32,000 bases of DNA from Delftia acidovorans NBRC 14950 (GCF_001598795.1 NZ_BCZP01000039.1:3730-35729); one strand, 5' to 3'. Positions 25,306-28,415 are shown, numbered from the stretch's first letter. Numbers and translations are program-made. Notes: generated by a model not told the origin, from the letters alone.

Positions 25306-25321
25306 TGCAACAAGCGTGCCA
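25306..25321 (-). promoter_or_regulatory. Canonical sigma-54 (-24/-12) promoter for the FecR-like/EAL operon
   Basis: The minus strand reads CCCA-TGGCACG-CTTG-TTGCA-ACAGG. This is an exact match to TGGCACG-N4-TTGC(A/T). It lies roughly 80-90 nt upstream of the ATG at 25217. Confidence 0.8.
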
Positions 25322-25358
25322 TGGGCCTGGACGTCTTCATCCAACGCAAAGCCATCTG

Positions 25359-25371
25359 TAACCTATTGATT
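25359..25371. promoter_or_regulatory. IHF-consensus site between the upstream repeats and the minus-strand sigma-54 promoter
   Basis: TAACCTATTGATT fits YAANNNNTTGATW, the reverse complement of WATCAANNNNTTR. It sits in an AT-richer patch. Confidence 0.5.
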
Positions 25372-25400
25372 TATTTGGACACCCAAGCACAGCTGCCACC

Positions 25401-25458
25401 ATGTCACCCCACGGCGTTACGGGCGATGTCACGTAACGCCTGCGCGCCACGGCGTTAC
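25401..25458. promoter_or_regulatory. Repeat cluster (candidate enhancer/UAS) in the divergent control region
   Basis: CCACGGCGTTAC occurs twice (25409-25420 and 25447-25458). An inverted GTAACGCC lies at 25433-25440. ATGTCAC occurs twice (25401-25407 and 25426-25432). Confidence 0.5.
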
Positions 25459-25517
25459 TTTCGCAGCGGCCGCGCAGGACGACGCGGCCCTGGCTGCCAG
25501 GCGCGGCCCCCCTTTCG

Positions 25518-26930
25518 GTGTATGTTCCAGCGCATCACTTTCAGGAGCCGGCCCTGTCCCCGCAAAAGTCCATCCAACGGGATCTGGTGATCCTCTGGCT
25601 CACCATCTCGGCCGTCGCCCTGGTGCTGGCGTGGCTGCTGCTGCTGCTGAGCCGGCAGGGCACCGACCAGCAGGTTTCCCGCGCCCGCGACGCCGCAGGC
25701 GTCAGCTGCAGCGCACTGCAGGCCGGGGCCGCGCGCATGGGGCTGGCGGGGCTGATGGCGGACACGCCCAGCGCACAGGCCCGGTCCGCCGCGCAGGCCG
25801 TGCTGGACCTGGCGCTGCGCGAGCGCCCCGGCATGGAGGGCGGCTTCTGGCGCGAGGGCCCCGGCGTGGTGGCCTATGCGTTTCCCACCTATGACGGCTC
25901 GGGCATCAAGCGCGATGCGCCCAGTGCGGAGATGGAGCGCATCACCTCCACCGCCCAGCGCGCGCGGGACAGCGCAGGCCTGGTGACCGACCTGCGCCCC
26001 GGCCTGCGCGAGGCGGTGGTCTTTGCCGCCTGCCCGGCCCAGGCGGACGCACCCGGGCTGGTGGCCTGGACACTGATGCGCGTTCCCCTGATCAGCGCCG
26101 ACGTGGTCAACCCCCTCATCCTTGCCGTCAGCCTGCTGCTGGGCATGGTCCTGGTCTCGGGCCTGTGGCTGGGCAGAATGCTCCGGCGCTGGCAGCGGCA
26201 GTCGGCACAGATGGAGCAGCAACTGCTCAGCGCCGAACGGCTGGCCACCCTGGGCAGGCTGTCCGCAGGCCTGGCGCACGAGATCCGCAATCCGCTGGGC
26301 ACCATGCGCATGAAGGCCGAGACCGCGCTGGCAGCGCCCGCGCCACTGCGCGAAGCGCGCAGCCTGGGCGCCCTGGAGGCCGTGCTGGCCCAGACCGCGC
26401 GCCTGGAAGACCTGGTATCGAGCCTGCTGGCATTGACCCAGCCCTTCCGGGTGCAACCGGAGCCGGTGGACCTGCAGCAGTTGCTGGACGAAAGGCTGCA
26501 GGCACATGCCGAGCTGGCCCAGGCCAGGGGTGTGCAACTGGCAACGGCAGTGTCCGCCGGCCTTGCCCGGGACCTGCAGGATGGGCGCCGCCCGCTGCTG
26601 GACACCGTGCAGATGGCCAGGGCGCTGGACAACCTGCTGCTCAACGCACTGGCGCACACGGCGGCCGGCGGCCGGGTGGAACTGGGCGCAGATCGCGGCG
26701 CCCACCGCAACAGCCCGCTGCAACTGTGGGTGGCAGATGACGGCACGGGCATTGCGCCCGAGCTGCGCGACACGCTGTTCGAGCCCTTCACCACCGCGCG
26801 CCCCGGCGGCACCGGGCTGGGATTGGCGCTGGTGCGCGAAATCGTGCTGGCCCATGGCGGCCGCATCGCGCTGGGCAAGACAACACAAGGCACACGCATA
26901 GAAATGGAATTTCCATGGCCCGCATCCTGA
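25518..26930 (+). CDS. Sensor histidine kinase (two TM helices, periplasmic domain of about 150 aa, HisKA plus HATPase_c)
   Basis: The H-box is LSAGLAHEIRNPLGTM, the N-box LDNLLLNALAHT, G1 DDGTGI and G2 GGTGLGLALVREIV. TM helices are LVILWLTISAVALVLAWLLLLL and LILAVSLLLGMVLVSGLWL. The start is uncertain: GTG at 25518 or a downstream alternative. Confidence 0.85.
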   Translation: MYVPAHHFQEPALSPQKSIQRDLVILWLTISAVALVLAWLLLLLSRQGTDQQVSRARDAAGVSCSALQAGAARMGLAGLMADTPSAQARSAAQAVLDLALRERPGMEGGFWREGPGVVAYAFPTYDGSGIKRDAPSAEMERITSTAQRARDSAGLVTDLRPGLREAVVFAACPAQADAPGLVAWTLMRVPLISADVVNPLILAVSLLLGMVLVSGLWLGRMLRRWQRQSAQMEQQLLSAERLATLGRLSAGLAHEIRNPLGTMRMKAETALAAPAPLREARSLGALEAVLAQTARLEDLVSSLLALTQPFRVQPEPVDLQQLLDERLQAHAELAQARGVQLATAVSAGLARDLQDGRRPLLDTVQMARALDNLLLNALAHTAAGGRVELGADRGAHRNSPLQLWVADDGTGIAPELRDTLFEPFTTARPGGTGLGLALVREIVLAHGGRIALGKTTQGTRIEMEFPWPAS

Positions 26931-28261
26931 TCGTGGACGATGACACGGCCTTCCGCGAAAGCCTGGCCGAGATGCTGGGCGACCTGGGCCACGCGGTCAG
27001 CGCGGCGCCCACGGTGGCGGCGGGGCTGCAGGTGCTGCAGGCCGGTTCGGTGGATGTGGCCATCGTCGATCTGCGCATGCCCGGCGAGGACGGGCTGGCC
27101 TTCCTGCGCAAGGCCCGCGGCCTCTCGCGGGCGCCCTGCATCATGCTCACGGCCTATGCCAGCGGCAGCAACACCATCGAGGCCATGCGCCTGGGCGCCT
27201 TCGACCACCTGACCAAGCCCATTGCCAGAACCTCGCTGGTCGAGGTGCTGGAGCGCGCCTTGCTCAGTGCCGGCCAGGCCGGCAGCCCTGAGAACGCCGC
27301 ACAGAATCCGGCGCAGAACCCGGAGCAGGAAGGCGATGAAGCCGAGCTGGTCAGCGGCAGCGAGGCCATGCGGCAGGTCTTCAAGCGCATCGGCCTGGCG
27401 GCGGACAGCGACGCCACCGTGCTGGTGCTGGGCGAGACCGGCACGGGCAAGGAACTGGTGGCCCGAGCCCTGCACCGCAACAGCGCCCGGGCGGAGCGCC
27501 CCTTCGTGGCCGTCAACTGCGCGGCCATTCCGGCAGACCTGATGGAAAGCGAACTCTTCGGCCATGTGAAGGGCGCCTTCACGGGCGCCGTCAGCGACCG
27601 CGCCGGGCGCTTTCGCGAGGCGCAGGGCGGCACGCTGTTCCTCGATGAAGTGGGCGATATGCCGCTGCCCACGCAGGCCAAGATCCTCAGGGCGCTGCAG
27701 GAGCGCGAGATCACGCCGGTGGGCGCCAGCCGGGCGCTGCCCGTGAACGTGCGCATCATCGCGGCCACGCACCGCGACCTGCCCGCCGCCGTCAAGGAGG
27801 GGCGCTTTCGCGAGGATCTCTGGTACCGGCTCCAGGTCGTGCCCGTGCACCTGCCGCCGCTGCGCGAGCGCCTGGGCGACGTGCTGCTGCTGGCCGAGCA
27901 TTTCCTGCGCCAAGGCGGCGGCGCCTCGCCCAAGCGCCTGGGTGCCGACGCCGCGCGCCTGCTGCTGGCGCACGACTGGCCCGGCAACGTGCGCGAGCTG
28001 CGCAACGCCATGGAGCGCGCGGCCCTGCTGTGCCCCGGGCCGGTCATCGGGGCCGAGCACATCGGCCTGCAGCCTGCCGCGGCGCACGGGCCCGCCATCG
28101 ACTGGAACGGCCCGCTGGCCGCCGCCGTCGCCCAGCTGGAGCGCGAAATGGTCACGCGTGCCCTGGCCGCCGCCACGGGCAACCGTGCCGAGGCCGCGCG
28201 CCGCCTGGGACTGTCGCGCCAGCAGCTGTACCGCAAGCTGGCGGAGTTCGGGCTGGGCTGA
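26915..28261 (+). CDS. NtrC-family sigma-54-dependent response regulator
   Basis: The receiver domain has ILIVDDD, VAIVDLRMPGEDG, MLTAY and LTKP. The AAA+ core has GETGTGKE, GAFTGA and TLFLDEV. The C-terminal HTH is NRAEAARRLGLSRQQLYRKL. It overlaps the kinase gene by 16 nt. Confidence 0.92.
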   Translation: MARILIVDDDTAFRESLAEMLGDLGHAVSAAPTVAAGLQVLQAGSVDVAIVDLRMPGEDGLAFLRKARGLSRAPCIMLTAYASGSNTIEAMRLGAFDHLTKPIARTSLVEVLERALLSAGQAGSPENAAQNPAQNPEQEGDEAELVSGSEAMRQVFKRIGLAADSDATVLVLGETGTGKELVARALHRNSARAERPFVAVNCAAIPADLMESELFGHVKGAFTGAVSDRAGRFREAQGGTLFLDEVGDMPLPTQAKILRALQEREITPVGASRALPVNVRIIAATHRDLPAAVKEGRFREDLWYRLQVVPVHLPPLRERLGDVLLLAEHFLRQGGGASPKRLGADAARLLLAHDWPGNVRELRNAMERAALLCPGPVIGAEHIGLQPAAAHGPAIDWNGPLAAAVAQLEREMVTRALAAATGNRAEAARRLGLSRQQLYRKLAEFGLG

Positions 28262-28308
28262 GGCAGCAATGGGCACACGGACGCGCGGACGCACGGACGG
28301 CACCGCAT

Positions 28309-28352
28309 GTGTCCGATACGGTGACACCGGCTGTCTCCGCATCGGACACCGG
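28309..28352. promoter_or_regulatory. Nested inverted and direct repeats (candidate enhancer/UAS)
   Basis: GTGTCCGAT (28309-28317) is inverted relative to ATCGGACAC (28341-28349). The palindrome CGGTG-A-CACCG lies at 28319-28329. GACACCGG is repeated at 28323-28330 and 28345-28352, 22 bp apart. Confidence 0.55.
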
Positions 28353-28369
28353 GCCCGCAGCATCCTCTG

Positions 28370-28382
28370 CAAGTTATTGATT
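28370..28382. promoter_or_regulatory. IHF-consensus site upstream of the plus-strand sigma-54 promoter
   Basis: CAAGTTATTGATT fits YAANNNNTTGATW. It lies between the repeat cluster and the -24 element. Confidence 0.5.
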
Positions 28383-28398
28383 TCATGAGGATTCCTGA

Positions 28399-28415
28399 TG
28401 GCATGGCACTTGCAT
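28399..28415 (+). promoter_or_regulatory. Canonical sigma-54 (-24/-12) promoter
   Basis: TGGCATG-GCAC-TTGCAT has correct GG-N10-GC spacing and a near-perfect match to TGGCACG-N4-TTGCW. It ends 37 nt before the ATG at 28453, and an AAGGAG RBS lies at 28442-28447. Confidence 0.8.

Follow-up and report, generated by a model that had tools for sequence, protein, structure and literature searches.

Several described regulatory systems bear on the locus discussed here, a 32,000-nucleotide stretch of Delftia acidovorans NBRC 14950 (GCF_001598795.1, NZ_BCZP01000039.1:3730-35729; 69% G+C), hereafter the window, in which the genes of a sensor histidine kinase (HK) and an NtrC-family response regulator (RR) lie between two outward-facing sigma-54 promoters. 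In the GlrK/GlrR (QseE/QseF) system of the Enterobacteriaceae, a membrane kinase is paired with the NtrC-type regulator GlrR, which binds TGTC-N10-GACA sites flanked by integration host factor (IHF) sites at the glmY and glmZ sigma-54 promoters, the IHF sites being needed for activity (PMC3045617); sites of this type can also be read in the E. coli glmY locus sequence. CbrB, which acts with CbrA on the Pseudomonas targets crcZ, crcY and PP2810, recognises TGTTAC forward and GTAACA reverse half-sites arranged as three subsites, combined with IHF and a sigma-N promoter, and CbrAB has been described as exclusive to pseudomonads (PMC6296734). Finally, ZraS/ZraR-zraP and AtoS/AtoC of E. coli join a periplasmic-sensor kinase and a sigma-54 RR to an adjacent target that encodes a periplasmic protein or a transporter.

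The right promoter of the Delftia locus, which precedes a gene here called p225, resembles those of GlrR, its nearest documented precedent, in lying behind several TGTC...GACA palindromes, although the spacer is N9 instead of N10, there are two sites at fixed positions (-90/-68) and a single IHF site sits tight against the promoter. Moreover, GlrR targets small RNAs, whereas the target of the Delftia RR would be a periplasmic tandem-OB protein with transporters, and the qseG lipoprotein gene that accompanies GlrK/GlrR is missing beside the Delftia pair. The RR was rejected as a GlrR/QseF orthologue on the basis of these differences in spacer, target and qseG, and of a score of 364 bits against the NCBIfam equivalog cut-off of 763. 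The best NCBIfam kinase matches of the HK are AtoS and ZraS, all with scores far below the equivalog cut-offs. In comparison with those two systems, p225 is a tandem OB-fold protein and not a helical chaperone of the ZraP/Spy type, and it is encoded downstream of the RR on the same strand, not divergently.

The left promoter, which precedes an operon of p181 and an EAL-domain gene, recalls the targets of CbrA/CbrB, with three half-sites on one helix face and an IHF site between enhancer and sigma-54 promoter. The order and spacing of the half-sites are different: CbrB subsites F1-R1-R2 are separated by 20-25 bp, whereas here a palindromic core has centres 17 bp apart and the third site follows at 21 bp. 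The CbrB half-sites are exact in three related loci (L088, L176 and L177) and carry one change each in the window (CGTTAC/GTAACG). As half-sites of this kind combined with IHF are documented for CbrB (PMC6296734), the left enhancer would be a typical site for a bacterial enhancer-binding protein (bEBP), distinct from TGTC...GACA. No CbrB-like protein was identified in this analysis.

Both regulons are uncharacterised representatives of a known promoter class, and the literature on DUF486, on Delftia with RpoN and cyclic di-GMP (c-di-GMP), and on tad with sigma-54 yielded no description of either module. Comparison with related loci indicates that these are probably two genuine IHF-assisted sigma-54 promoters in two evolutionarily independent modules, neighbours only in Delftia, with the p181-EAL operon under a bEBP other than the local RR. 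The two-component system most likely controls the right promoter only.

The right promoter and its predicted regulator

A sequence-only reading of this DNA had proposed two outward -24/-12 promoters around the kinase and regulator genes, each behind an IHF site and a repeat cluster, and every element of that layout is found (Table 1). The sigma-54 sequence TGGCAYGNNNNTTGCW (TGGCAYG-N4-TTGCW) has exactly two exact matches in the window, one per promoter, against 0.03 expected from dinucleotide-preserving shuffles. The IHF consensus WATCAANNNNTTR likewise has exactly two, both on the minus strand, against 0.01 expected. At each promoter the IHF match falls just upstream of the sigma-54 site, between the activator sites and the -24 element. 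The repeat clusters, which the same reading had described as dissimilar, resolve into two 17-bp palindromes on the right, here termed upstream activator sites (UAS1 and UAS2), and into half-sites within 25413-25458 on the left.

The right promoter is intergenic and oriented towards p225, with 55 nt from TGG to the start codon. Transcription is predicted to start at about 28424-28426, giving a 5' untranslated region (5'UTR) of about 28 nt, followed by an AAGGAG ribosome-binding site and an ATG at 28453, a correction of the start codon given earlier. The TGTC-N9-GACA motif has two matches in the window, namely UAS1 and UAS2 (0.23 expected). Distances counted from the T of TGG are -89 to -92 for UAS1, -66 to -70 for UAS2 and -29/-30 for the IHF core, which invariably reads on the opposite strand. 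This layout was followed through 54 distinct p225 upstream regions, in which the GG-N10-GC element (at most two mismatches) is found at the position of the right promoter. If a region counts as complete when it has the sigma-54 site, the IHF site and one UAS or more at their places, 14/14 distinct Delftia-group upstream regions qualify, as do 32/34 of those at 55-80% p225 identity, and the layout is kept even where 3-6 kb separate p225 from the RR. Across the p225 family TGTC and GACA are constant, with free variation at the nine positions between them, so that each UAS is predicted to be the binding site of a dimer. Judged by this conservation, the right promoter is a genuine IHF-assisted sigma-54 promoter with upstream activator sites, and almost certainly the target of the local RR.

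Just upstream of UAS1, tandem 8-bp GCACGGAC/GCGCGGAC repeats (28271-28299, plus strand) each contain a CGGAC word that resembles the right half-site. Their sequence and copy number differ among Delftia strains, and they may represent weak accessory sites or a microsatellite.

Across Burkholderiales and Xanthomonas, the right promoter layout accompanies the HK-RR pair. The order HK-RR-p225-(DMT_6)-MFS is found in Delftia, Herbaspirillum, Xanthomonas, 'Pseudomonas sp. Kh13' (L001) and many metagenome contigs, and it recurs among the 79 loci that a metagenome scan added to the comparison. Many loci join p225 to an RR orthologue of 55-92% identity. Among these orthologues, those at 58-77% identity are followed by a p225 homologue in L001, L004 and L005, with p225 placed 6 kb off in L003. 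The p225 family extends over Delftia, Comamonas, Cupriavidus, Achromobacter, Herbaspirillum and Zoogloea, its members being always annotated as "hypothetical".

Several peculiarities of this gene group were observed. HK-RR-p225-DMT_6-MFS behaves as a five-gene cassette when the window (25437-30805) is compared with L088 (positions 6664-8001). It stands at another genomic site in L083, and in L092 HK and p175 are separated by an inserted LysE gene. Two p225 paralogues occur in Xanthomonas (L005:8884-10199) and in the metagenome loci L136, L146 and L171, adjacent to each other in L005, L136 and L171. Of such paired paralogues, only the first is preceded by the sigma-54/IHF/UAS promoter.

DMT_6 is probably co-transcribed with p225. 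Its start, previously placed at 29130, is probably at 29235, which gives a protein of 115 aa; the gene is called with the same length in L081, and the gene order is conserved. Between the p225 stop and this likely start, a CT-rich repeat tract (CTTTC/CTGCTTTC)n follows a weak terminator-like hairpin (within 29149-29215).

The left promoter and its enhancer

The left promoter is likewise intergenic and oriented towards its first gene, p181, with 104 nt from TGG to the start codon. Transcription is predicted to start at about 25295-25297, with a 5'UTR of about 79 nt, then a GGAGGAG ribosome-binding site and an ATG at 25217. Its half-sites, GGCGTTACG / CGTAACGCC / GGCGTTAC, alternate in orientation, and GTAACG/CGTTAC does not occur in the window outside the left repeat cluster.

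Upstream regions of p181 were recovered from four lineages, these being the Delftia group (the window, L081, L086, L092 and others), L088, L176 and L177-L179. TGGCAYG-N4-TTGCA is common to all four, even though p181 itself is only about 50% identical, and so are the IHF core at -50/-51, in the promoter's orientation, and the core enhancer YGTTACGTGAC-N7-CGTAACR, which starts at -117/-118 and is accompanied by further GTTAC/GTAAC half-sites. The core enhancer was seen in the window, L086, L092, L088, L176 and L177, taking the form TGTTAC...GTAACA in the last three loci. The distal third half-site is present in Delftia and L088, its place being taken by other GTTAC/GTAAC half-sites in L176 and L177. 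By its conservation in related loci, the left promoter is also judged to be a genuine IHF-assisted sigma-54 promoter with upstream activator sites.

Table 1. Promoter elements and genes of the window, with positions counted from its first nucleotide.
Feature	Position	Strand	Remarks
Right sigma-54 promoter, TGGCATG-GCAC-TTGCA	28399-28414	+	Exact consensus; -24 GG at 28400-01, -12 GC at 28412-13
Right IHF core, AATCAATAACTTG	28370-28382	-	16 nt upstream of TGG; opposite orientation to promoter
UAS1, TGTCCGATACGGTGACA	28310-28326		TGTC-N9-GACA, 17 bp; predicted RR-dimer site
UAS2, TGTCTCCGCATCGGACA	28332-28348		TGTC-N9-GACA, 17 bp; centre 22 bp from UAS1 centre
Left sigma-54 promoter, TGGCACGCTTGTTGCA	25321-25306	-	TGGCACG-CTTG-TTGCA; exact consensus
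Left IHF core, AATCAATAGGTTA	25359-25371	-	37 nt upstream of TGG; promoter's own orientation
Left core enhancer, CGTTACGTGACATCGCCCGTAACG	25415-25438		In promoter orientation, YGTTAC-N12-GTAACR
Distal half-site of left enhancer	25453-25458		GTAACG in promoter orientation
HK	25518-26930	+	Sensor histidine kinase; HisKA, HATPase_c
RR	26915-28261	+	NtrC-family response regulator (bEBP)
p225	28453-29130	+	First gene downstream of right promoter
DMT_6 (DUF486)	29235-29582	+	Membrane protein, 115 aa
MFS transporter	29594-30805	+	Closes the conserved p225-DMT_6-MFS block
p181	24672-25217	-	First gene downstream of left promoter
EAL-domain protein	23217-24671	-	Second gene of left operon
Glycosyltransferase (GT), GT4	21869-23140	+	After tad-linked bEBP; convergent with EAL gene
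tad-linked orphan bEBP	20436-21830	+	Ends the tad locus; without recognisable receiver domain; GSFTGA; HTH_8
flp, rcpC, secretin, tadZ-like, tadA, tadB, tadC, tadE, tadG	about 6.6-20.4 kb	+	

Separation of the two modules

The two promoters differ in their cis-acting elements. TGTC-N9-GACA on the right stands against YGTTAC-N12-GTAACR on the left, neither motif occurring elsewhere in the 32 kb, and the IHF sites differ both in orientation and in their distance to TGG (16 nt right versus 37 nt left). Because the enhancer and the position and orientation of the IHF site differ in this way, the left promoter would be activated by a different enhancer-binding protein.

Gene order in the relatives separates the two modules. 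In L088 the order is Endonuclease_NS, p176-EAL, GT-bEBP-tadG, with the nuclease gene directly abutting the p176 promoter region; the genes HK-RR-p225-DMT-MFS are missing there, and in Delftia these five separate the nuclease gene from the p181 promoter. L177 shows an unrelated 74-aa gene, then p169-EAL and GT-bEBP, with no adjacent HK-RR. The left promoter and its enhancer are thus kept without an adjacent HK-RR in L088 and L177, as they are in L176. Conversely, L083 (D. tsuruhatensis) carries HK-RR-p221-DMT-MFS without p181-EAL. Among 22 HK-RR lineages outside the Delftia group, 0/22 have a divergent sigma-54 promoter or GTTAC...GTAAC upstream of HK, so that a divergent sigma-54 promoter beside HK is confined to Delftia-group loci. 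TGTC-N9-GACA is absent upstream of HK in all lineages compared and is not found near the left promoter. Neither this motif nor a sigma-54 promoter that could autoregulate HK-RR precedes HK in any lineage.

The p181-EAL operon would hence constitute a module separate from HK-RR, having its own enhancer, its own IHF geometry and a persistence that does not follow the kinase and regulator genes. Of the single regulon that the sequence-only reading had drawn around the regulator, the right half stands as the target of the local pair, whereas the left promoter adjoins HK in Delftia only; the proposed wiring of the two-component system to c-di-GMP turnover lacks support, as the operon retains promoter and enhancer in loci with no HK-RR beside it. 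Its caveats that the repeat clusters differ and that one promoter might belong to another activator hold. The comparison of orthologous loci that it had called for found both promoters and their repeats conserved, but as separate modules.

Candidate activators of the left promoter and alternative readings

The best local candidate for the activator of the left promoter is the tad-linked bEBP, to which we would give a little less than an even chance. In 3/4 lineages (Delftia, L088 and L177) GT and this bEBP are oriented convergently to the EAL gene, the bEBP lying two genes from the p181-EAL operon in all three. The last 22 aa of the protein are 95% identical between L177 and the window, and the synteny of GT after bEBP is kept in L088, L177, L172, L173 and L175. 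Within the window it has no other strong sigma-54 promoter, including the region upstream of flp, and neither a sigma-54 promoter nor a GTAAC motif was found before the flp/tad genes. Since no sigma-54 promoter precedes flp, the tad-linked activator is left without an obvious target at the pilin gene.

Several observations weigh against the reading of two independent modules with a tad-linked activator, or limit it. The strongest alternative, plausible though somewhat short of probable, holds that the left promoter is driven by a bEBP encoded elsewhere, for example one of CbrB-like specificity, its nearness to the tad-linked activator and HK-RR being incidental. What ties the tad-linked bEBP to the left promoter is synteny, a circumstantial link. 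Orthologues of this bEBP in Comamonas, Lampropedia and Paraburkholderia (L172-L175) have no p181-EAL within +/-10 kb, and neither a TGTTAC-type enhancer nor a strong sigma-54 site was found in the same range; because these four orthologues lack such elements nearby, the assignment stays circumstantial. In L176, p170-EAL has no GT-bEBP next to the EAL gene within the contig. The half-sites, moreover, match those of CbrB, a global regulator acting at distant loci (PMC6296734). Against a remote activator, GT and the tad-linked bEBP adjoin the operon in three of the four lineages despite a p181 divergence of about 50%, the window offers this bEBP no second strong sigma-54 promoter to serve, and CbrAB is exclusive to pseudomonads according to the same work.

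It is unlikely that the local RR activates both outward promoters, uniting p181-EAL and p225-DMT-MFS in one regulon that would couple the kinase signal to c-di-GMP turnover. The RR gene lies between both promoters in all Delftia-group loci, and the two promoters share a general build of UAS, IHF site and -24/-12 elements. In addition, a CGTGACA word in the left enhancer is close to the right half of UAS1, and remote control by an RR encoded elsewhere would be possible in L088, L176 and L177, where the absence of HK-RR is seen at the locus only. This reading is opposed by the differing enhancers and IHF arrangements, by the three lineages that have the left promoter and enhancer without an adjacent HK-RR and the 22 that have HK-RR without the left promoter, and by the second GTGACA word of the left cluster, which is not conserved in L088, L092, L176 or L177. 

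It is highly improbable that one or both sites are chance consensus matches without promoter function, for although about 1.5 matches per window are expected once a mismatch is allowed and GG-N10-GC words are frequent in GC-rich genomes, the exact 16-mers (2 against 0.03) and IHF cores (2 against 0.01) far exceed expectation, the enhancer motifs are unique to their own promoters, and both sites are intergenic, correctly oriented, paired with one of the only two IHF cores of the window and joined to an enhancer at fixed spacing across divergent lineages.

The remaining reservations concern the right-hand module and the promoters in general. The right-hand architecture was undetected below about 44% p225 identity. 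The weak terminator-like hairpin between p225 and DMT_6 (29149-29170) renders co-transcription of p225 with the transporter genes uncertain, and, together with the CT-rich tract, suggests that read-through into them may be partial. The dependence of both promoters on sigma-54, IHF and an activator is, furthermore, deduced from their sequences.

Some further features of the tad-linked bEBP were recorded. Its N-terminal ~130 aa (20436-20840) are as long as a receiver domain, but no acidic pocket can be recognised in them, and a Pfam search up to E<=10 gives no family; in the sigma-54 contact loop GSFTGA stands in place of GAFTGA. The recognition helices of the helix-turn-helix (HTH) domains were compared between the RR, E. 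coli GlrR and the tad-linked activator, and diverge too far for specificity to be read from them. A near-consensus word, TGGCCTGGTACCTGCA, inside the tadZ-like gene (11276-11291, plus strand) and conserved at L172:1741, L175:983 and L173:924, is the one sigma-54-like site that recurs near this activator. In frame it encodes L-A-W/L-Y-L-H/Q, and its conservation is probably explained by coding constraint.

Proteins of the two modules

Domain content supports the assignment of the two-component pair. In the HK, two transmembrane segments enclose a periplasmic domain of about 145 aa; HisKA and HATPase_c follow. The RR matches the Pfam families Response_reg, Sigma54_activat, AAA_lid_14 and HTH_8 (a Fis-type HTH), with D52, GETGTGK and GAFTGA at 220, as predicted for an NtrC-family response regulator acting as a bEBP.

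p225 starts with a hydrophobic stretch ending in AHA (a signal peptide), after which a Pro-rich linker leads to two OB-fold barrels in tandem. It belongs to no Pfam family. The AlphaFold2 (AF2) model shows two five-stranded barrels, with a pLDDT of 78 overall and about 90 in the barrels, and its best Foldseek matches are two-OB single-stranded DNA-binding proteins (SSBs), RPA and CcmE, but only at E>=1e-3. On the basis of the model, p225 would be a periplasmic tandem-OB-fold protein.

p181 consists of a disordered N-terminus and a conserved all-beta domain (residues 58-151), which the AF2 model renders with a pLDDT above 90 over most of residues 60-150. The family is narrow, and the p181 of the window is 100% identical to DR66_1293. 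The earlier description of p181 as FecR-like (PF04773) finds no support, there being no Pfam match at E<=10 and no PDB match of the beta-domain model with E<0.1. In Acidovorax, 140-aa homologues of the beta domain are encoded directly after PapD chaperone and PapC usher genes (L090:8001-8423, L091:4515-4937), a neighbourhood that hints at a link of this domain to surface fibres.

The EAL protein matches Pfam EAL at 2.3e-35 and retains the majority of the catalytic residues (ECL, N, EITE, DD, KIDK, EGIE and QG), with a degenerate loop 6 (DDIVPRRCG versus DFG[T/A]GYSS). No signal peptide or transmembrane segment is predicted in p181 or in the EAL protein, so that the envelope-type signalling system suggested earlier is not supported. 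The EAL protein is predicted to be cytoplasmic, and could be either an enzyme or a receptor.

Other features of the window

A 647-aa open reading frame without a Pfam match lies upstream of flp (4634-6577, minus strand), the start of flp being at about 6724. An Rfam scan of the whole window detected no known RNA family, and a more sensitive one, run on the left 5'UTR and its intergenic region, was likewise empty, so that there is no c-di-GMP riboswitch. A sigma-70 promoter scan of 24600-31000 also found nothing, and so no promoter for the kinase operon itself.

Proposed mechanism and implications

The analysis established sequence features, their conservation, synteny and domain content; from these we infer which protein binds which site, the nature of the signal and the involvement of sigma-54 and IHF. 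According to its anatomy, the HK would sense a periplasmic signal and phosphorylate the RR. RR dimers would then bind the two TGTC-N9-GACA palindromes, which start about 90 and 68 bp upstream of TGG, IHF would bend the DNA at the site starting about 30 bp upstream of TGG, and the ATPase of the RR would open the sigma-54 closed complex at the right promoter. The output would be transcription of p225, and probably of DMT_6 and MFS by read-through. The p181-EAL promoter would be activated by the other bEBP, for which the tad-linked activator is the likeliest candidate, through YGTTAC-N12-GTAACR and the extra half-site.

A more specific picture is offered tentatively. At the end of the tad locus, an orphan, receiver-less activator may switch on, via the CbrB-like YGTTAC-N12-GTAACR, the EAL protein and its novel beta-domain partner p181, as a c-di-GMP switch of the pilus locus in Comamonadaceae, while HK-RR-p225-DMT_6-MFS may represent a widespread mobile envelope-response regulon of Burkholderiales and Xanthomonadales, in which the spacing of enhancer, IHF site and promoter is of unusually rigid geometry.

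For the reading of genomes from sequence alone, the locus holds a caution: a regulator located between two matching promoters need not control both, and comparative genomics can split them. The fixed-distance motif sets, that is, the TGTC-N9-GACA pair or YGTTAC-N12-GTAACR, each with IHF and -24/-12 elements, are usable for genome scans of either regulon. For genes annotated as "hypothetical" in many Betaproteobacteria, two sharp regulator-target predictions result. The first is a conserved two-component regulon whose output would be a periplasmic tandem-OB protein and two transporters, and the second an EAL operon that is driven by sigma-54 and joined to a tad pilus locus.

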